Below are positions 9,428-50,482 of a DNA stretch of 64,000 bases, piece by piece. This DNA is from an uncultured bacterium (GTDB lineage Bacteria > Chlamydiota > Chlamydiia > Chlamydiales > CAYWQB01). The stretch lies in NCBI GenBank assembly GCA_964460785.1, contig CAYWQB010000001.1:515234-579233 (forward strand), read 5' to 3'. Below the pieces are notes generated by a model that was not told the DNA's origin, searched no databases, and worked only from the letters and a program-made list of their open reading frames with translations. The position numbers and the translations under genes were made by a program. Every line of letters begins with the position of its first letter. Positions within the stretch are counted from its first letter, which is position 1.

Positions 9428-10170
9428 GGCTTACACGTTACCTTTTTGCGATTCTTTCTATCTTTGGTGCCTGGCAACTTTTATCTTTCTGGGTAGGCAA
9501 TGAGATTTTTCCAAGCCCTTGGGCAACTCTCCAAGCCTTTACCCAGCAGCTTCCTGTCCGCCTAGCAAAAGATATGTTGGTCAGTACCTATCGTGTGACA
9601 CTTGGACTTGGTATTGCTATTTGTATTGCACACCCATTGGGCCTTATTTCTGGTAGAGAGAGATGCCTAGACCAATATCTGACTCCCATCATCCAGGTAT
9701 TATATCCCATTCCTAAAATTATTTTTCTCCCGATTATCTTTATTCTGCTTGGGATTGGAGACTTAGCTAAAATTTCTCTAATCGCTTTGAAAGCTGGTTT
9801 TCAAATTCTTGTGATTAGCCATGATTATTCCAAGGGGCTGAGCCAAACATACTTTGATTCTATGCGAACACTAGGAGGAGGGAAGCGCCATTTTTACTTC
9901 CACATTTTGTGGCCTAGCAGCTTACCTTCCTTATTTACTGCGATACGCATCAACTTAGGAACAGCTCTTTCGATTCTTTTCATTAGTGAGAGCTATGCAA
10001 CGCAGTATGGAATTGGAGCCTACATCATGGATGCTTTTGGGCGCTTCAACACCCTACAGATGCTTGCTGGCACCTTTGGGATGGCCATACTTGGAGTCAG
10101 TATGTTCTTTATGGTTAATTTACTAGAGAAGGTTTTTTGCCCCTGGCATCACCTAGCTAAAGAAAATTAG
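9424..10170 (+). CDS. ABC transporter permease (NitT/TauT family, BPD_transp_1 type)
   Basis: 248 aa and about 6 TM segments. There is an ATGA start/stop overlap with the ATPase gene. Confidence 0.8.
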   Translation: MRLTRYLFAILSIFGAWQLLSFWVGNEIFPSPWATLQAFTQQLPVRLAKDMLVSTYRVTLGLGIAICIAHPLGLISGRERCLDQYLTPIIQVLYPIPKIIFLPIIFILLGIGDLAKISLIALKAGFQILVISHDYSKGLSQTYFDSMRTLGGGKRHFYFHILWPSSLPSLFTAIRINLGTALSILFISESYATQYGIGAYIMDAFGRFNTLQMLAGTFGMAILGVSMFFMVNLLEKVFCPWHHLAKEN

Positions 10171-10265: not shown

Positions 10266-13121
10266 ATGCAAGAAATGGACAAGACCTACGCCCCTCAACA
10301 GGTTGATGAAAAGTGGTATACACTTTGGGAAGAGAAGGGGTACTTCCATGCTGACCCTGAATCTGAACGTCCCCCCTTTTCTATCTCGCTACCTCCTCCC
10401 AATGTGACGGGCTCGCTACACATGGGCCACGCCTTTCAACAAACACTCTCTGATGTTCTCATTCGCTACAAACGCATGAATCAGTTCGAAGCAATGTGGC
10501 TTCCTGGCACAGACCATGCGGGGATTGCAACCCAGACTGTGGTTGAAAAGCACTTAATGAAAACTGAAGGCAAAAAACGCAAAGACTATGAAAGAGAAGA
10601 GTTTCTTTCTCATGTGTGGCAATGGAAGGAAGAAAAACAAGATCGGATTCTAAGCCAGCTGCGCAAATTAGGGTCATCTCTTGACTGGGAGCGATTAAGC
10701 TTCACGATGGATGAGCCAAGAGCCAAGGCGGTTAAAAAGCTTTTCAAGCGCATGTTTGATGAGGGCCTGATCTATCAAGGTGACTACCTGGTGAACTGGG
10801 ACCCTGTGACGCAGACTGCAATTGCAGATGATGAGGTGGAGTATGAAGATCAAGAGACTTTCCTTTGGCACTTCCGTTACCGCCTAAAAAATGATCCTTC
10901 TCAATCTTTAGAGGTCGCAACAACTCGACCCGAAACGATTCTGGGAGATACAGCAGTTGCTGTTTCCCCCAAGGACCCTCGCTTTAAGGGTCTCATTGGG
11001 CAAGAGGTTCTCCATCCTGTTACTGATCAAGCCATCCCTATTGTTGCCGATCCATTTGTAGATCCTGAATTTGGCACCGGAGTGGTCAAAATCACCCCAG
11101 CCCATGACCCAAATGACTACCAAGTCGGAGAACGCTGTGGGCTTCCTTTTATCAATATTATGACTCCAGATGGTCATATCAATGAAAATGGAGGCTCTTA
11201 CCAAGGCCTTACGATGCTTGAAGCTAGAGAAGCTATTGTGAAAGATCTAGGGCAAAAGGGCTTATTTGTAAAAAAGGAGCCCTACCACCACCGCGTTGGG
11301 CTTGCAGATCGTTCACGCGCTGTCATCGAGCCATATATTTCCAAACAATGGTTTGTGAAAATGGGGCCATTTAAAGAGCGTTTGCGAGAGCTTGTAGAAT
11401 CTGGTGAAGTACAAATCACGCCGAAAAGCTGGAAGCAAACCTACTTTCACTGGATTGATAACTTAAGAGACTGGTGCATCAGCCGGCAGTTATGGTGGGG
11501 GCACCGCATCCCTATCTGGTATAATAAGCAAGATCCAAGTCAAATGATCTGCTACGATGGTGAGGGACTTCCTCCTGAAGTTGAAAAAGACCCATCCGCT
11601 TGGGAGCAAGATGAAGATGTTCTAGACACCTGGTTTTCTTCTGGTCTGTGGCCCTTTAGCACTCTTGGGTGGCCTGAGCAAAATGCAAGCTTAGAAAAGT
11701 TTTTTCCTAACAGTGTGCTGATCACTGGTCACGATATTCTATTCTTTTGGGTCGCTCGCATGATGATGATGAGTGACTACGCTTTTGGGAAACCTCCCTT
11801 TAAACAAGTCTTCCTCCACGGGATTATCTTTGGTAAGTCATACTGGCAAACAGATAGTGAGGGACATACTAAGTATCTCTCCCCTAAAGAAACCCTCCCT
11901 TATGAACTTGGAGAAAAGCCAGTTCCTAAAGGAGTTCAGTCTCGATGGGAAAAAATGTCGAAGACAAAAGGGAATGTCATTGACCCTCTTGAACTGATTG
12001 AAGACTACGGAACGGATGCTGTGCGCATGGCTCTCTGCGCCTCTTGCTCTCACCTCCCACAAATCGACCTCGATCGACGGCGCTTTGAAGACTACAAAAA
12101 CTTTACGAATAAAGTTTGGAATGGCGCCCGTTTTGTCATGATGAGTTTAAAGGGAGATGAACGTTCTCCAGAGCTCTCTCGTTTAACTGCTGAAGAGTTA
12201 GCTCAAGGCATTGATTCAGAGCGATTGCAGCTTGAAGATTACTGGATCCTATCCTCTCTTAACCGCACAATTGAAGATGTTCGAGAGAGGCTCGAAACTT
12301 TTCAGTTTGATCAAGCGACCTCTGCTGCATACTCCTTTTTCTGGAAAAACTTTTGTGCCTATTACGTAGAGATCTCTAAACCTTACCTCTTCTTAAAACA
12401 AGGGTCTCCAGAGCAAAGAAAAAATAAGCAGCGTATCCTAGCCACAGTACTTCTATCTTCGATGCGCTTGTTGCATCCTATGGCTCCTTTCATTACAGAA
12501 GAGATCTTTTCTATCTTACAGCAGTTTTTCAAGGGGTTATCCGCTTCTACCACAGACCCCTATACGAAAGAGTTAGATAAAGCCTTAGCTTCTCCTTCCT
12601 GTATGGTGGCCCCTTATCCAGTGCCTATTGATCAGGATAACCATAAGTTTGAAAAAGCAGATAAAGTCTTTGGTCTTATTGAACGTGTTGTCTATAGCAT
12701 CCGCAATATTCGTGGAGAAATGAAAATCTCTCCAGGTGAACGCACTGATCTTTACGTTGTTGCGGACCAAGGTTCCGAGCTACAGGAAAGCATCAAAAGC
12801 AATGAAGTCATCCTTCATGCTCTAACACGCATTGGCACGATTCACTATGTACATGAGCTCCCTGAAAATGAGTCTGGAAGCACAGCTGCAATTCGTGATG
12901 TCACTCTTTTCTTACCTATTCCTGCGCATTTGCTAGAAAAAGAAAAACTACGCCTAGAGAAAGAAAAAGAGCGCTTGCAAGCAAACTTTGAAAAAATCTC
13001 AAAGCAACTTGAGAACCCACAGTTTGTGGAGAGAGCGCCTCAGCACCTAGTTGAAAAGCAGCGTTCTATTATGAATAAAACGCTCATGGAACTTAAAGCC
13101 ATTGAAGATAAGCTGAACTAA
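10266..13121 (+). CDS. valS: valyl-tRNA synthetase
   Basis: 951 aa with HIGH-type SLHMGHAF, KMSKS-type EKMSKTKGN and a C-terminal coiled coil. Confidence 0.97.
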   Translation: MQEMDKTYAPQQVDEKWYTLWEEKGYFHADPESERPPFSISLPPPNVTGSLHMGHAFQQTLSDVLIRYKRMNQFEAMWLPGTDHAGIATQTVVEKHLMKTEGKKRKDYEREEFLSHVWQWKEEKQDRILSQLRKLGSSLDWERLSFTMDEPRAKAVKKLFKRMFDEGLIYQGDYLVNWDPVTQTAIADDEVEYEDQETFLWHFRYRLKNDPSQSLEVATTRPETILGDTAVAVSPKDPRFKGLIGQEVLHPVTDQAIPIVADPFVDPEFGTGVVKITPAHDPNDYQVGERCGLPFINIMTPDGHINENGGSYQGLTMLEAREAIVKDLGQKGLFVKKEPYHHRVGLADRSRAVIEPYISKQWFVKMGPFKERLRELVESGEVQITPKSWKQTYFHWIDNLRDWCISRQLWWGHRIPIWYNKQDPSQMICYDGEGLPPEVEKDPSAWEQDEDVLDTWFSSGLWPFSTLGWPEQNASLEKFFPNSVLITGHDILFFWVARMMMMSDYAFGKPPFKQVFLHGIIFGKSYWQTDSEGHTKYLSPKETLPYELGEKPVPKGVQSRWEKMSKTKGNVIDPLELIEDYGTDAVRMALCASCSHLPQIDLDRRRFEDYKNFTNKVWNGARFVMMSLKGDERSPELSRLTAEELAQGIDSERLQLEDYWILSSLNRTIEDVRERLETFQFDQATSAAYSFFWKNFCAYYVEISKPYLFLKQGSPEQRKNKQRILATVLLSSMRLLHPMAPFITEEIFSILQQFFKGLSASTTDPYTKELDKALASPSCMVAPYPVPIDQDNHKFEKADKVFGLIERVVYSIRNIRGEMKISPGERTDLYVVADQGSELQESIKSNEVILHALTRIGTIHYVHELPENESGSTAAIRDVTLFLPIPAHLLEKEKLRLEKEKERLQANFEKISKQLENPQFVERAPQHLVEKQRSIMNKTLMELKAIEDKLN

Positions 13122-26830: not shown

Positions 26831-28606
26831 CTATCCCTGGGAAGCCCTAGCTATTTTCCCTTCAATGGAGTTCCAAGCTTTTTGGTACTCATTCGACTCG
26901 AAAGGAAGAAAGTTTAGGTTTTTAATTTCGTTTTGCAGGTTGATAAAATAGACCCTCGCTTCATCATGTGAAGAGAAGGCAAATTCTGTACGAAAAATAC
27001 GATCAACAAGTGAAAAAAGAGGCTTTTGTCTTTCTAAAGGACAGTAGGCATCTTCTTTATCGAAAGCATTTTGCTGTAAGTAAGCGAAGTCATAAAGTTC
27101 CGCTTTAAGATAGGTAATTAAGTCTTCTATCGCGGTTCCTTCTTCACCAACAACTTCCATCCTCTTTCCAATTTCATCACCAAGACGAAGCATTTGTGAG
27201 GCGCGACGCACCATTTCCCCCCACCCTTCGACATCGTGCTCTAGCTCTTTTGCACAAAGTCCTACATACTTTGACCAAGACTGCAGTGTATCGATTGCTG
27301 GATAGCGGCGTGCATCTGAGCGCGCTCGAGAAAGACCATGAAACGCTCCTACGACCGCAAGTGTCGACTGAGTCACAGGTTCTTCGAAGTTACCACCTGC
27401 AGGAGAGACAGACCCTCCAATTGTTACGGAGCCTTGAGAGCCATCTTTCAACTGGAGACATCCTGCGCGCTCATAAAAGGCTGCAATACGTGAAGCCAGG
27501 TACGCAGGGAAGGCTTCCTCTCCTGGAATTTCTTCCAAGCGGCCAGACATTTCTCTCAAAGCCTGAGCCCAACGAGACGTTGAGTCTGCTAGAAGTAGGA
27601 TATCTAGACCCATTTGCCGGTAATATTCAGCAAGGGTGATCCCCATGTAAATGGAAGCTTCTCGGGCAGCGACGGGCATAGAGGAGGTATTACAAATGAT
27701 TGCGGTGCGGTTCATTAGCGTTTCGCCAGTGTGGGGGTCTTCAAGCTCTGGGAACTCCTGAAGAATCTCCACAACTTCTCCTGCCCGCTCGCCACAAGCA
27801 ACAACAATCACAACATCTACAGCTGAGTACTTGGACAGATGATGCTGAATCACAGTTTTTCCTGCTCCAAAAGGCCCAGGCGTACAAAATGTCCCTCCCT
27901 TAACGACAGGTACTTGGGTGTCAATCACACGCAGCCCGGTATCCATCATTTTTGAGCCTCGCACACGCTCACCACACATCAAACCGCTCTTTACAGGCCA
28001 TGTTTGAACCATTGTAAAGGAGTGCTCTTTTCCAGACTCATCGGTTGCTTTTGCTACGACTGTATCGACAGTATAATCCCCTGGCTCAATCGTCCAGGTC
28101 AATGTATAGCGCCCATAAAGCTTAAATGGCACCATCACTCGGTGTGTGAAGCGCCCTTCTGGAGTTGTGCCTAGAGAGTCTCCTCTTTCTAAGACATCTC
28201 CAACAGATGCAGTGGGAGAGTAAGCCCATTTCTTTTTACGATCTAGAGGCTTTAGATAAAGCCCGCGTGGTAAGAAAACCCCTGAAGCTTCTGCAACTTC
28301 TTCCAAGGGGTTTTGCAAACCATCTACCACACTTGAAAGGACACCAGGCCCTAGTTCTGCCTCTAACAGTTCATTGGTGAAGCTCACATGAGCTCCAACA
28401 GAGACTTCTCGGGTATCTTCATATACCTGGATCTTTACGAAGTCTCCAGCGACTTCGATAACTTCACTTTTTAGAGCCACATCACCCACATGTACGTAGG
28501 CAACTTCTCCTTGCTTCACAGTCCCCTCGTACTGCACTTGCAACAGGTTCCCAAATGCTCGCTTCACCGAGCCTTTTGCGTGAGCAGTTTCTGCTACCGT
28601 GGTCAT
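26831..28606 (-). CDS. atpA: V-type ATPase catalytic subunit A
   Basis: 591 aa with Walker A GPFGAGKTV and the blocks ADSTSRWAQALREMSGRLEE and PGEEAFPAYL. Confidence 0.95.
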   Translation of the reverse strand: MTTVAETAHAKGSVKRAFGNLLQVQYEGTVKQGEVAYVHVGDVALKSEVIEVAGDFVKIQVYEDTREVSVGAHVSFTNELLEAELGPGVLSSVVDGLQNPLEEVAEASGVFLPRGLYLKPLDRKKKWAYSPTASVGDVLERGDSLGTTPEGRFTHRVMVPFKLYGRYTLTWTIEPGDYTVDTVVAKATDESGKEHSFTMVQTWPVKSGLMCGERVRGSKMMDTGLRVIDTQVPVVKGGTFCTPGPFGAGKTVIQHHLSKYSAVDVVIVVACGERAGEVVEILQEFPELEDPHTGETLMNRTAIICNTSSMPVAAREASIYMGITLAEYYRQMGLDILLLADSTSRWAQALREMSGRLEEIPGEEAFPAYLASRIAAFYERAGCLQLKDGSQGSVTIGGSVSPAGGNFEEPVTQSTLAVVGAFHGLSRARSDARRYPAIDTLQSWSKYVGLCAKELEHDVEGWGEMVRRASQMLRLGDEIGKRMEVVGEEGTAIEDLITYLKAELYDFAYLQQNAFDKEDAYCPLERQKPLFSLVDRIFRTEFAFSSHDEARVYFINLQNEIKNLNFLPFESNEYQKAWNSIEGKIARASQG

Positions 28607-29382
28607 GCTTCTTCCTTCAAGATATCTTCTACTAATTCTTTACTTTTGGATGCATCCAAAGCGAACCAACGCTCTAGAGCCCCAAGCTTTAATCCATAAG
28701 CTAATACATACTCTGTGGAGAAGACTTTTGTCTCCATAGCCTCTGATAAATAGTCCCACTCAAATGCCAAAACTCCCTTAGCAAGTTCTAAAGGAGAGGT
28801 CTCCTCTTCACTAAATAGGCGTTTTAAAGGCTCAAATTCTAGGGGGGGCTCATAACTTTGAGCATCTTTTTGAGCTAAGATTTGTGCAACAATAGGGTCA
28901 CTAGGGTCTTCATAGCGCAACTCTGGCTCTACAGGAACCCCGATGCGCTTCGCGCGCAGTGCGGTGATCACAAGCCGCAAGCTTCGAGCAAAGTGAAGAT
29001 ACGCAGCCACAAACCCATCTTGCTGCTGGCTTTCAACTACAAAATATTGCGCTAGCAAAGAGGGATAGTGCTTGATTCGATCTTCGACTTCATCATGAGA
29101 GTCTAAAAAGCTTAAAACATATTCTGGGAATCCCGTTTTATCCTGTAAATGTGCTTCTAGCTCTACCTTTGAATACAGACCTCGATCATCCCATGGTGTT
29201 CCCACATAGAGCGAACGGATATTTTCCAAGTCTGTAAGGTGCATCAGCGTTTTCAGTTGCTGCCACTCCTTGGCAGGCAAGTTTTCCTTACACATAAGAG
29301 AAAACTCTTGAAAGGAGAGTTGAGGAGCCTCCTGACGTTTCAGAGGAGGCAGGGCTGATACGAGATAAAATAAACTAGCCAT
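28603..29382 (-). CDS. V-ATPase-operon protein of unknown function (I recall this family as DUF2764; possible subunit C/d analog)
   Basis: 259 aa located between atpE and atpA, with a 4-nt overlap to atpA. As I recall, chlamydial and Bacteroidota V-ATPase operons have a hypothetical gene at the same position. Confidence 0.6.
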   Translation of the reverse strand: MASLFYLVSALPPLKRQEAPQLSFQEFSLMCKENLPAKEWQQLKTLMHLTDLENIRSLYVGTPWDDRGLYSKVELEAHLQDKTGFPEYVLSFLDSHDEVEDRIKHYPSLLAQYFVVESQQQDGFVAAYLHFARSLRLVITALRAKRIGVPVEPELRYEDPSDPIVAQILAQKDAQSYEPPLEFEPLKRLFSEEETSPLELAKGVLAFEWDYLSEAMETKVFSTEYVLAYGLKLGALERWFALDASKSKELVEDILKEEA

Positions 29383-29386
29383 ATGC

Positions 29387-30001
29387 TTAGGAAAAAAACA
29401 GGTCTCTAAAATCTTTGCGAACGTAACTTCCCAGCAGCTGAGCTACTGTCTGATCAGACATATCAAGGGTGAGATACTCATCTTTTAAAATCAGTTTAAA
29501 GCCACCCTTTAAAGGTTGAGACTCCATTTTGATTCTTTGTAAAGCTTCTTGCCCAATCTCTTCTGCAAGCTTCTTACTATCAACACATTGAGGAATAATC
29601 AGCTCTAGCGATGCTCCCATGCCTTGCTTTTCAATGGCTGCAACTAAGCTTGTCACGAGTTTTGCAAGGCTCGGCTCATCACACAAAGCATTTGCGACCT
29701 TCTCCCCCAACAACTTTTGAAACAAGTTGGTTTCAATCTCTTGTCGGAGAGCTTCTTGCGCCTGCTTTGCGGCCTGATTCATATTGCTCTGAAGAATCTC
29801 TTTGTCTTTTTTTGCTTGCTTTCGAGCTTGCTCCACAATCTCTGCCGCTTGCTGCTTGGCATCAGAGACAATTTTTTCTGCGCTTTTTTCTGCTTCAGCA
29901 ATTAAGCGATCAGCCTCTTCTCTTGCAGGCTCTAATGTATCTCGCTTAATCAGGTCACAGATTTCCTGAATCTTGTTTTTACTACTCTTTAGATCATTCA
30001 T
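29387..30001 (-). CDS. atpE: V-type ATPase subunit E
   Basis: 204 aa with a long charged N-terminal helix (AEAEKSAEKIVSDAKQQAAEIVEQARKQAKKDKE). It is the first gene of the operon. Confidence 0.8.
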   Translation of the reverse strand: MNDLKSSKNKIQEICDLIKRDTLEPAREEADRLIAEAEKSAEKIVSDAKQQAAEIVEQARKQAKKDKEILQSNMNQAAKQAQEALRQEIETNLFQKLLGEKVANALCDEPSLAKLVTSLVAAIEKQGMGASLELIIPQCVDSKKLAEEIGQEALQRIKMESQPLKGGFKLILKDEYLTLDMSDQTVAQLLGSYVRKDFRDLFFS

Positions 30002-30283
30002 AAGCCACTTACTCTGTTTGCTCTACATTCCCCTCGCGAGAGGCTAGGACCTTAACCCATGGCGGGTTAACTTTCCATGAGAAAAAATTTCTCACCTACC
30101 ACCTGTCGTAGCCAGGTTTTCCTAAACCCCATTTTCTTTCAATGTTTTAATTGATTCTTGGGCTGCATAAAAAGAGCTTGCGGTCAGAAGTAACAGAGAA
30201 TAAATGACCATAGAAAAAATATCGAACTTCGTTCAAAATGTAGATAAGCTATTTGTAATTTAGAACTTTTTCAGGGAGAGGTT

Positions 30284-31240
30284 ATGAGCAAACTTGACCA
30301 GCTCAAAGAGATGACCACAGTTGTGGCAGATACCGGAGAAATTAATGCGATCAAGCAATACACTCCAACCGATGCAACAACAAACCCTTCTCTCATCTAT
30401 GCAGCCACACAACTACCTGACTACCAGTCACTTATAGAAGAAGCCTTAACCTACGGTAGAAAAAAAGGCGCAACAGCCGAAGAGCGCCTTGATCATACCA
30501 TGGACAAGCTAACGACAAACTTTGGCACAGAAATCCTAAAGATTGTTCCTGGCCGCGTATCAACCGAAGTCGATGCTCGCCTTTCTTTTGATACAGAAGC
30601 TAGTATTGAAAAAGCAAAAACTCTCATTGGGCTTTATGAGCAAAATGGTATTGATCGTAAGCGCATTCTCATTAAGCTTGCCTCTACTTGGGAAGGCGTT
30701 GAAGCTGCACGTGCTCTAGAGCAAGAGGGCATTCATTGTAACATGACTCTTATGTTCTGCCTTCCCCAAGCCATTGCCTGTGCAGAAGCAAAAGCTACTC
30801 TCATCTCTCCTTTTGTTGGCCGTATCTTAGATTGGCACAAAAAAGCTGAAGGGATCGAAGGGTACCCTCCAGAGAAAGATCCAGGGGTACTTTCTGTTCA
30901 TAAAATTTACAACTACCTAAAGAAGTTTGGCTATCCAATCCAAGTGATGGGAGCTTCCTTCCGTAATGCGGATGAAATCTTACAACTTGCTGGTTGTGAC
31001 CTCTTAACAATCAGCCCCAAACTACTTCAAGAGCTGAGCACCTCTGAAGGAGAAGTTGAAAGAAAACTAGATCCAAAGCTGGCTCAACAAAGCTCGATTG
31101 AAAAGATGGATATTGATGAGCAAGCTTTCCGCTACTTACTGAATGACGATGCGATGGCAACTGAAAAGCTTGCAGAGGGCATTCGCAAGTTTGCTCATGA
31201 CCTAATCAAGCTGGAAAGCTCTATCCGCCAAAAGCTGTAA
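30284..31240 (+). CDS. tal: transaldolase (TalB type)
   Basis: 318 aa. All active-site positions are present at E. coli TalB spacing: D in VADTGE, TNPS, E in STEVD, K in [12 protein letters not shown] and T in CNMT, S and R in ISPFVGR, and S and R in GASFRN. Confidence 0.95.
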
Positions 31241-31250
31241 TTTCTCATGC

Positions 31251-31273
31251 ATTGGGGGCATTTTGCCCCCAAT
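31251..31273 (+). terminator. stem-loop 11 nt after the tal stop (putative terminator or processing hairpin)
   Basis: ATTGGGGGC (31251-31259) pairs perfectly with GCCCCCAAT (31265-31273) around a 5-nt loop. The trailing sequence is T-rich but is not a clean U-tract. Confidence 0.4.
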
Positions 31274-31346
31274 CATATCTTTATTCTTGACATTTCTTAC
31301 GAACTTTCTTATCTCCCGAGCTAAGGGAATAGACTGCAGGTGGCTC

Positions 31347-32243
31347 GTGGAACAGAACTTATGGACACAACTCAAAGAGATCACTAGTGTTGCTTTAGAC
31401 TCTTTCAACCCTCAGGATTACCACTTTTTTACTCCTGAGCATGGGACTTGCAATCCTTCGATTGTGCGGCAATATATGATCCATGCAAACCATCATTTAG
31501 CATCCTCTGGAACGGCAGAGCTTGCTCTTGTGCATGGAGCAGAGGCGATCTTTAAGGAACTCCATGGCAAGCTCGCTATTCAGCTCAATCCTTTTTTTGC
31601 TCATAGTCAAACGCAAATGACCTGCAATGCTAAGCATTTACTCCATCTTTTTGGAGAAGCGGGCATTGAATCAGAACGAGTGATTCTTAAAATTCCAGGC
31701 ACATGGGAAGGCATATTAGCTGCAAAAGAGCTTGAAGAAGAAGGCATTACAACAATGCTTACAGCCGTCTTTACCGCTACACAAGCAATGACAGCAATGG
31801 AAAAAGGGATCTCTTATATTGCTCCTTGGGTTTCAGCCATTCAATCTATTCAAAGTAAAGATTCGCTTCCTTTAAGCCATAAAGGGGTCGAGTTAACTCT
31901 TAATCTCCACCAAGAGTTCAAGCAAAAGCAGGCGAAGACTCGCATCCTTGCAGCGGGCTTAAAGACGATTGAAGAAGCATTTTCTGTAGCAAGTATTGAT
32001 GCTTTAACGATTAAGCCTCGCTTAGCCCTTGAGTTACAAGCAACCCATGAAGTGCCCACACTATATAGAAGTTTTGACTTAAACCTTTGTGATGCGGTGA
32101 CAACAAAGAGAGCATTTGAAAGCCAAATCAAGCAAGAAGGCTCTGCATTAGAGTACCTTGAACAATCCCTCAACCAATTCCGGTTGTCATGGATGGCGAT
32201 TAAACAGCTAGCCTCACAAGGAAGCAGCCTAGCCCTTACTTGA
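31347..32243 (+). CDS. divergent transaldolase-like paralog (possible pseudoenzyme)
   Basis: It aligns without gaps to tal across the core (LKEITSVALDS, CNPSIV, VILKIPGTWEG). I moved the start to GTG 31347, preceded by AGGTGG. The track TTG start at 31263 lies inside the tal hairpin and adds 28 non-homologous residues. Confidence 0.75.
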   Translation: MEQNLWTQLKEITSVALDSFNPQDYHFFTPEHGTCNPSIVRQYMIHANHHLASSGTAELALVHGAEAIFKELHGKLAIQLNPFFAHSQTQMTCNAKHLLHLFGEAGIESERVILKIPGTWEGILAAKELEEEGITTMLTAVFTATQAMTAMEKGISYIAPWVSAIQSIQSKDSLPLSHKGVELTLNLHQEFKQKQAKTRILAAGLKTIEEAFSVASIDALTIKPRLALELQATHEVPTLYRSFDLNLCDAVTTKRAFESQIKQEGSALEYLEQSLNQFRLSWMAIKQLASQGSSLALT

Positions 32244-49054: not shown

Positions 49055-49127
49055 CGAGTGCGGAGGGGTTCGAACCCCCGACCTGCGACTTTGGAGATCG
49101 CTGCTCTACCAACTGAGCTACACACCC
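49055..49127 (-). tRNA. trnW: tRNA-Trp (anticodon CCA)
   Basis: Minus-strand sequence: GGGTGTGTAGCTCAGTTGGTAGAGCAGCGATCTCCAAAGTCGCAGGTCGGGGGTTCGAACCCCTCCGCACTCG. It folds as a cloverleaf with anticodon loop CTCCAAA and T-loop GGTTCGAA. The 3' CCA is not encoded. Confidence 0.93.
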
Positions 49128-50410: not shown

Positions 50411-50482
50411 TGCCCAGAATAGGAATCGAACCTACGACCGCTTGCTTACCATGCAAGTGCTCTACCTCTGAGCTATCTGGGC
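50411..50482 (-). tRNA. trnT: tRNA-Thr (anticodon GGU)
   Basis: Minus-strand sequence: GCCCAGATAGCTCAGAGGTAGAGCACTTGCATGGTAAGCAAGCGGTCGTAGGTTCGATTCCTATTCTGGGCA. The anticodon stem is CTTGC/GCAAG and the loop is ATGGTAA. Confidence 0.93.

Follow-up and report, generated by a model that had tools for sequence, protein, structure and literature searches.

The 64-kb window analysed here, a stretch of contig CAYWQB010000001.1 from an uncultured bacterium of the Chlamydiota, contains two adjacent genes on the same strand, tal1, encoding a canonical transaldolase, and tal2, encoding a divergent protein of the same superfamily which keeps the Schiff-base lysine. The preferred reading of tal2, held at a probability of about 0.55, is that of a maintained, re-purposed and still ligand-reactive aldolase-type protein. 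Judged by its active-site residues, the window tal2 is not a normal transaldolase: at several of the positions that differ from the E. coli transaldolase TalB it shows the residues of fructose-6-phosphate aldolase (FSA). In the alignment of three positional orthologs, which differ at more than half of their residues, the covalent donor half-site of the active site is preserved and the acceptor/phosphate half-site is not, and the gene is under purifying selection. Reaction type, substrate class and catalytic competence of tal2 are read here from the sequence.

Active site and predicted fold of the tal2 protein

Residues were mapped by HMMER alignment to the TalB chains of the PDB, by BLASTP alignment to tal1 and by a MAFFT alignment of 153 sequences, among them E. 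coli TalB, FSA and the 150 database representatives nearest to tal2; all three agree. The TalB and FSA reference sequences were verified against the published residue numbers, and positions are given in E. coli TalB numbering unless otherwise stated. The window tal2 shows the signature D-N-Q-K-M-T-A-W-A-G-K at positions 17/35/96/132/154/156/176/178/181/226/228, and thus seven of the eleven TalB functional residues differ. A preliminary description of this DNA had listed D17, N35, K132 and T156 as retained (window D18, N36, K115 and T139) and E96 to Q, N154 to M, S176 to A, R181 to A, S226 to G and R228 to K as changed; the three alignments agree with both lists, and the profile alignment shows no Glu, Asn or Arg equivalents at the changed catalytic or phosphate positions. 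It had also described a gapless alignment with exact spacing to the Schiff-base lysine, which is correct from E96 to R181 but not beyond, since about five residues are deleted before S226 and there are about 18 fewer residues between N35 and E96. The most unusual change, F178 to W, had been overlooked.

At the seven changed positions FSA shows Q, L, A, Y, R, S and K in the MAFFT alignment. The statement that the protein had lost several catalytic residues was therefore a misreading: E96Q, a hydrophobic residue at 154, S176A and R228K are normal FSA states, and by this alignment Gln96, the hydrophobic residue 154, Ala176 and Lys228 of tal2 are an aldolase configuration, not erosion. The losses that the alignment leaves as real are two: the phosphate anchor (R181 and S226; the site Arg181/Ser226/Arg228 is Ala/Gly/Lys in the window tal2) and the catalytic Tyr, replaced by Trp in this copy only. 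Among the 150 nearest representatives keeping Lys132, positions 96/176/178 are mostly of two discrete types, E/S/F in 84 and Q/A/Y in 32, with Q/A/W in one; Trp at position 178 is unique to the window copy. The orthologs of the window tal2 show Tyr (TAC, TAT) at this position, from which TGG is two nucleotide steps away.

The functional weight of these positions is known mainly from mutagenesis, which indicates that the choice between transfer and aldol cleavage depends on one or two residues, Glu96/Phe178 in transaldolase and Gln/Tyr in aldolase (PMC3962226, PMC13259622). TalB F178Y turns the transaldolase into a dihydroxyacetone (DHA)-dependent aldolase with an efficiency about that of FSA, and the substitutions S176A in TalB F178Y and A129S in FSA alter which donor is preferred, DHA or hydroxyacetone, the more hydrophobic of the two (PMC3962226). 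The sulphate/phosphate site of TalB is formed by two Arg and one Ser, R181 among them, and R181E favours an unphosphorylated acceptor, with better use of unphosphorylated glyceraldehyde (PMC3962226). In FSA the catalytic water is bound by the triad Gln59-Thr109-Tyr131, of which Tyr131 serves as main proton shuttle (PMC13259622); a passage of the same article, citing Stellmacher et al., states that swapping triad residues between FSA and TalB interconverts both activities. A literature search for data on FSA Y131F found none.

The AlphaFold model of the window tal2 shows a complete (beta/alpha)8 barrel, with a predicted local distance difference test score (pLDDT) of 92.3 and a predicted template modelling score (pTM) of 0.90. 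Its template modelling (TM) score is 0.82-0.87 against TalB-type structures (TalB and the Francisella and human transaldolases) and 0.55-0.61 against the short TAL/FSA chains; on this model, tal2 has the TAL_FSA fold in its long, TalB-type form. With Pfam PF00923 (TAL_FSA) the protein obtains 127.9 bits, and it remains below the cut-off of both specific families, with 120.7 bits on TIGR00874 (talAB equivalog, cut-off 396.2) and 66.1 bits on TIGR00875 (FSA, cut-off 245.95).

The tal1-tal2 locus, its relatives and its maintenance

The product of tal1 has every residue that TalB uses for catalysis and phosphate binding (D N E K N T S F R S R) and reaches 499.1 bits on TIGR00874, above the cut-off. 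Its nearest relatives are transaldolases of Chlamydiota metagenome-assembled genomes (MAGs), with 67-73% identity, which bears out the chlamydia-like affiliation proposed from the letters alone. The window tal2 is only 26% identical to this neighbour (BLASTP). Its frame is open from the TTG at 31263 through the stop at 32243, and contains no stops in 298 codons; the two remaining forward frames contain 18 and 22. A GTG start of its own, after a hairpin that follows tal1, had already been proposed for the gene. The GTG at 31347 is used by an exactly matching public protein (P0001) and agrees with the N-termini of the orthologs; position 31251 marks where the hairpin begins and not the coding sequence. 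A Logan assembly made independently agrees with the locus at every one of 11,167 bases. The features of the locus are collected in Table 1.

Table 1. Positions of the tal1-tal2 features in the 64-kb window and their equivalents in TalB and FSA
Feature	Position	Strand	Description
tal1	30284..31240	+	canonical subfamily-I transaldolase, 318 aa
GC-rich hairpin after tal1 stop	31251..31273	+	10 bp stem with 6 G-C pairs, terminator-like, weak T tail
TCTTGACAT	31285..31293	+	9-mer containing the sigma-70 -35 consensus TTGACA, just 3' of the hairpin
tal2 coding sequence (= P0001)	31347..32243	+	GTG start, 298 aa, TalB-length TAL_FSA-fold protein
Gln79 (CAG)	31581..31583	+	TalB Glu96 / FSA Gln59; invariant in three orthologs
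Lys115 (AAA)	31689..31691	+	TalB Lys132, Schiff-base lysine; invariant in three orthologs
Met137 (ATG)	31755..31757	+	TalB Asn154 / FSA Leu107; Val, Ile in orthologs
Ala159-Pro160-Trp161 (GCT CCT TGG)	31821..31829	+	TalB Ser176-Pro177-Phe178 / FSA Ala129-Pro130-Tyr131
Ala164 (GCC)	31836..31838	+	TalB Arg181, phosphate ligand; Lys in orthologs
Gly204-Leu205-Lys206 (GGC TTA AAA)	31956..31964	+	TalB Ser226-Phe227-Arg228 / FSA Ser166-Phe167-Lys168; orthologs S-F-Q, S-F-N

An exhaustive search of 1.84 billion representatives gave a single close relative, P0002, with 44% identity and E = 8e-63, all others showing at most 35%, and a profile search added P0180, with 41% identity to the window tal2. 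Both searches were needed: a word-index protein search recovered only P0001 itself. A scan of genome contigs with the single tal2 protein found no relative, and a scan of genome and metagenome contigs with the alignment of the three orthologs found no new ortholog, only distant transaldolases of partial length with 24-46% identity. The locus of P0002 (L002), in a 42-kb metagenomic contig, contains, in the same order as the window, a minus-strand V-type ATPase operon, tal1, tal2 and a convergent RND pump gene overlapping the 3' end of tal2; in the locus of P0180 (L003), also in a metagenomic contig, the C-terminus of tal1 is found upstream of tal2. P0002 and P0180 are positional orthologs of the window tal2. 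At positions 96/154/176/178/181/226/228 they show Q-V-A-Y-K-S-Q and Q-I-A-Y-K-S-N, respectively. The FSA-type Q/T/Y triad with its Lys is complete in both, and in the window copy Trp stands for Tyr.

The next-best match, P0003 (Simkania sp. MAG, MBS3904689.1), and P0026 (Parachlamydiales MAGs, MGE0669358.1 cluster) show Q/A/Y with an intact R/S/R phosphate site. In each case the gene directly follows, in the same orientation, a tal1 of 318 aa, either overlapping it or lying 11 nt away (Simkania loci L061/L062 and Parachlamydiales locus L063), and a similar protein, P0061 (MBT3394438.1), is present in a Waddliaceae MAG. A tal2 gene immediately downstream of tal1 on the same strand is thus found in the window, L002, L003, L061/L062 and L063. 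In a neighbour-joining tree the four tal1 proteins form a clade with 98% bootstrap and every tal2 falls outside it, and the window tal2, P0002 and P0180 are grouped at 100%. The description of tal2 as a tandem paralog, if taken as a local duplication, does not agree with this tree or with the presence of the pair in Simkania and Parachlamydiales; on the tree, the window tal2 is not a recent copy of the neighbouring tal1. Recent horizontal transfer was considered as well and is rejected on the basis of a GC content of 0.43-0.44, equal to that of the flanks, together with the conserved synteny with L002.

The spacer between tal1 and tal2 shows conserved signals. The L002 and L003 spacers have a hairpin and a T-run at the same place, and their stem reads CCCAAGC/GCTTGGG where that of the window reads GGGGGC/GCCCCC. 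The 9-mer TCTTGACAT, which occurs once in the window, is invariant in the window, L002 (~9932-9940) and L003 (~262-270) spacers despite saturated synonymous sites, and may represent the -35 box of a promoter for tal2, the -10 being weak or unclear. In Simkania and Parachlamydiales the two genes are contiguous and no terminator-containing spacer lies between them. From these signals, tal2 of the window clade seems to be uncoupled from the transcription of tal1.

Comparison of the window with L002 indicates that tal2 is maintained. Protein identity is 77% for V-ATPase subunit A, 71% for tal1, 55% for the RND pump, 50% for an unannotated gene of the V-ATPase operon, provisionally subunit E, 47% for the DUF2764 protein and 43% for tal2, which is the fastest of the six compared genes, yet close to genes whose function is certain. 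Third codon positions are saturated in all six pairs (p = 0.59-0.65). Because the synonymous rate (dS) is saturated for every window/L002 pair, a formal ratio of nonsynonymous (dN) to synonymous rate was replaced by codon-position p-distances, the comparison with neighbouring genes and a relative-rate test. For tal2, the p-distances at first, second and third positions are 0.48/0.33/0.65 between the window and L002 (dN 0.61, dS at least 2.6, saturated) and 0.27/0.16/0.56 between L002 and L003, which are 66% identical (dN 0.25, dS at least 1.5). After this much divergence, a neutrally evolving sequence would no longer be recognisable and would be filled with stops. The orthologs are intact, with no frameshift, and dN is well below the saturated dS, which is not the pattern of neutral evolution. 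In Tajima relative-rate tests with five outgroups the Trp-bearing window copy is not accelerated against the Tyr-bearing orthologs: P is 0.2-0.9 in eight of ten tests, and the lowest values, 0.018 and 0.064, both come from one outgroup. The constraint is distributed unequally in the active site. All seven residues of the donor side, Asp18, Thr34, Asn36, Gln79, Lys115, Thr139 and Ala159 (TalB 17, 33, 35, 96, 132, 156 and 176), are invariant in the three orthologs, versus none of the five positions 154 (M/V/I), 178 (W/Y/Y), 181 (A/K/K), 226 (G/S/S) and 228 (K/Q/N).

The surroundings of the pair are also shared in part. The 3' end of tal2 overlaps by 15 nt (32229-32243) the 3' end of a convergent gene encoding a 1034-aa RND (ACR_tran) pump, and the same 15-nt overlap is found in L002 at 10922-10936. 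Divergent and upstream of tal1, at 26831-30001 on the minus strand, there is part of the V-type ATPase operon, with genes for subunit A, for a DUF2764 protein and for a subunit-E-like product of 204 aa; the V-ATPase/tal1 adjacency is present in all the environmental Chlamydiota loci inspected, except L061/L062, L063 and L067. Four other Chlamydiota genomes (L064-L067) show between the V-ATPase operon and tal1, at about 1900-4000 of each locus, four or five small open reading frames (ORFs) of about 70-225 aa without Pfam matches. The corresponding interval of the window (30002-30283) has only 282 nt and no ORF of at least 60 aa. Two tRNA genes on the minus strand, 49055-49127 and 50411-50482, are the sole Rfam matches at gathering threshold in the window.

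Two further sets of proteins were found among the nearest representatives. A sizeable fungal group of TalB length (P0007, P0008, P0016, P0030, P0044, P0053 and others), from sources that include Paecilomyces variotii and Blastobotrys adeninivorans, shows Q96-L154-A176-Y178 with Glu or Asp at R181 and Thr, Val or Ile at R228. The tree joins this Q-L-A-Y-E group to the window clade with 100% bootstrap; the link may be due to long-branch attraction or convergence and is not relied on. Proteins P0031, P0032, P0058, P0085, P0091, P0100 and P0114 show Gln or Arg at K132 and have most catalytic residues gone, with R181 and R228 kept; by these residues they are better candidates for pseudoenzymes than the window tal2.

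Proposed function and alternative explanations

In several environmental Chlamydiota tal2 would represent an old second member of the transaldolase/FSA family beside the housekeeping tal1. Its proteins combine the long TalB scaffold with the FSA-type configuration Gln96/Ala176/Tyr178 and, by analogy with the mutagenesis of TalB and FSA, would cleave or form aldols directly rather than transfer a dihydroxyacetone unit. The three-genome clade formed by the window, P0002 and P0180 would have diverged strongly with its donor half-site (Asp, Thr, Asn, Gln, Lys, Thr, Ala) held invariant, its C1 pocket turned hydrophobic in the manner of FSA (Met/Val/Ile at 154 plus Ala176) and its Arg/Ser/Arg phosphate anchor replaced by residues that now appear to vary freely; its gene would be transcriptionally apart from tal1, through a terminator hairpin followed by the conserved TTGACA box. 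Such a protein would bind a small ketol donor through the lysine, together with a non-phosphorylated partner, and, given the hydrophobic C1 pocket, a preference for donors resembling DHA or hydroxyacetone is possible. The window copy shows Trp in place of the proton-shuttling Tyr and, with Gln at 96 and Trp at 178, has neither known acid/base residue; it is expected not to be a transaldolase and to act, if at all, as a slow or non-canonical aldolase, unless another group serves the water network. The conserved Tyr157 and His178 would be candidates for such a base. The pentose-phosphate function is already covered by the canonical tal1 next door. A bolder form of this proposal is rather unlikely: that the window clade is a new specificity class, with the phosphate anchor lost, a Trp-containing site in the window copy and Schiff-base chemistry on non-phosphorylated ketols or aldehydes, which would use an acid/base arrangement absent from the characterised family members, and that environmental chlamydiae carry, as the tal1-tal2 pair, a natural counterpart of the engineered TalB E96Q/F178Y.

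Several results weigh against the reading of tal2 as a ligand-reactive aldolase-type protein. tal2 is missing from four other sampled Chlamydiota loci with V-ATPase and tal1, and only one copy is present in Chlamydia species; tal2 is thus old and patchy and, being without counterpart in those four tal1 loci, dispensable. In the tree the window clade falls inside the Q/Y group with a support of only 41%, and pairwise scores of 90-129 bits do not separate tal1, tal2 and the fungal group; that the window clade is placed together with the Q/A/Y tal2 proteins of chlamydiae is based on gene position and shared signature. With three orthologs known and dS saturated, dN/dS is an upper bound only. A consensus promoter scan of the three tal1-tal2 spacers, which overlooked the L002 hairpin owing to its long loop, called no promoter; because of this and of the weak -10, no more than a conserved -35-like element is claimed. 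Lastly, the window copy is without Glu96 and Tyr178, and catalysis may be abolished in it, which favours a pseudoenzyme.

This last explanation, a catalytically dead protein whose barrel is kept for a non-catalytic role such as the binding of a ketose or ketol, or the pairing with tal1 to modulate it, is doubtful but has a real share of the probability. TalB-type enzymes are dimers, which bears on such a pairing. In favour of this explanation, the window copy has neither the acid/base Glu96 of transaldolase nor the Tyr131 of FSA, described as the dominant proton shuttle (PMC13259622), shows a Trp178 unique among the 150 nearest representatives, and has lost the phosphate anchor in a gene that is still constrained. 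Nevertheless, the Schiff-base Lys and the whole donor half-site are invariant across orthologs differing at 57% of residues, which is unexpected if covalent chemistry is irrelevant, both orthologs keep the complete FSA-type Q/T/Y triad, so that the clade overall does not look dead, and the terminator between tal1 and tal2 speaks against an obligate stoichiometric pairing. A decaying pseudogene, that is, a duplicated tal in neutral drift and open by chance, could explain the 26% identity to tal1, the scores below all NCBIfam cut-offs and the absence from several related genomes; it is hardly credible for a frame with no stops in 298 codons versus 18 and 22 in the other frames, with intact positional orthologs in two organisms despite saturated synonymous sites, second codon positions as the most conserved, a high-confidence AlphaFold model and conserved spacer signals. 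The preliminary description had already argued against decay, and in this it was right: orthologs, codon-position constraint and confident predicted fold all agree with it.

Two enzymatic alternatives were also weighed. That tal2 is a second ordinary transaldolase isozyme, as TalA/TalB in E. coli, would agree with its TAL_FSA fold, with transaldolases as its best structural matches and with its position adjoining tal1, but Glu96, Asn154, Ser176, Phe178, Arg181, Ser226 and Arg228 are all changed, 121 bits are obtained against the 396-bit cut-off of TIGR00874 and a canonical tal1 is already there, which makes this very improbable. A transaldolase or aldolase for a differently charged sugar, such as sulfofructose in the SftT/SF-TAL pathway, has as little in its favour as a decaying pseudogene: the phosphate site is replaced with a Lys still at 228, and sulfofructose transaldolases do exist in the superfamily (PMC7491151; PDB 8bc2, 8bc3). 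These are of the short Thermoplasma acidophilum-like type, with 41.7% identity to that enzyme (PMC7491151), and match the model only at TM 0.57; no sulfoquinovose-pathway genes are nearby, the neighbours being the V-ATPase operon and the RND pump, and the anion-site residues are not conserved in the three orthologs (A/K/K, G/S/S, K/Q/N). A sulfofructose transaldolase was rejected on scaffold type, gene context and this non-conserved anion site.

The presence of the Gln/Tyr states in 32 of the 150 nearest representatives suggests that the swap known from mutagenesis has been made naturally many times on the long TalB scaffold, and environmental chlamydiae keep the swapped protein beside the housekeeping enzyme. 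If active, the tal2 proteins would represent naturally occurring aldolases of the DHA or hydroxyacetone type, which could interest biocatalysis, and the sugar metabolism of obligate intracellular bacteria would gain a side branch through them. The database label "transaldolase" is probably wrong for all of them. The window copy, conserved without both known acid/base residues, offers a clean test case between catalysis without them and a binding protein. Its Trp variant is a curiosity, and the general point for enzymologists would be the natural Q/A/Y proteins of TalB scaffold paired with tal1. No literature on a chlamydial second transaldolase or on a transaldolase pseudoenzyme was found in the searchable library, which is incomplete.

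Comparison with known transaldolases and aldolases

E. coli transaldolase B shares with the window tal2 the fold, the length class, the Schiff-base Lys, Asp17, Asn35 and Thr156; by score, Glu96, Phe178 and the phosphate site, tal2 is not a member of TIGR00874. The chlamydial tal2 proteins P0003, P0026 and P0061, annotated as transaldolase, are of TalB length with Q96/A176 like the window tal2, and P0003 shares with it the motif IQLNP.F after Gln96. Unlike the window tal2, the three retain Tyr178 and the full R181/S226/R228; Asn154 is kept in P0003 and P0026 and is Ile in P0061 and Met in the window tal2. Identity to tal1 is 37-42% for P0003 and P0026 versus 26% for the window tal2. By its position and partial signature (Q and A, with W for Y), the window tal2 would belong to this unnamed chlamydial group. 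The fungal group shows an FSA-type active site without the phosphate anchor, like the engineered R181E variant.

FSA shares with the window tal2 the Schiff-base Lys, the Asp, Asn and Thr, the Gln at the Glu96 equivalent, the Lys at the R228 equivalent, and a hydrophobic residue plus Ala at the C1 pocket (L107/A129 in FSA, M137/A159 in the window), and local motifs are strikingly alike (window YIAPWV and ILAAGLKT, FSA YVAPYV and VLAASFKT). It differs in Tyr131, which is Trp in the window and Tyr in the two orthologs, in Arg134 and Ser166, which are Ala and Gly, with only the Lys168 equivalent kept, and in length, the window protein being of the long TalB type with 298 aa versus a subunit of about 220 aa. 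By length, score (66.1 bits versus 245.95), Tyr131 and Arg134/Ser166, the window tal2 is not a member of the subfamily-V FSA.

The engineered TalB variants F178Y, E96Q/F178Y and F178Y/R181E (PDB 3cwn, 4rz6 and 3kof) show the same scaffold with FSA-type catalytic residues, and E96Q/F178Y (4rz6) is the top PDB sequence match of the window tal2 in HMMER. The loss of Arg181 in tal2 is paralleled by TalB R181E, selected for unphosphorylated acceptors (PMC3962226). These variants are laboratory constructs with about 23-24% identity to tal2 in structure-based alignments, and keep Tyr178, Ser226, Arg228 and Asn154, where the window tal2 has Trp, Gly, Lys and Met. Among the known systems, FSA and the engineered TalB variants E96Q/F178Y and F178Y/R181E would come closest to the window tal2 in their mode of action.

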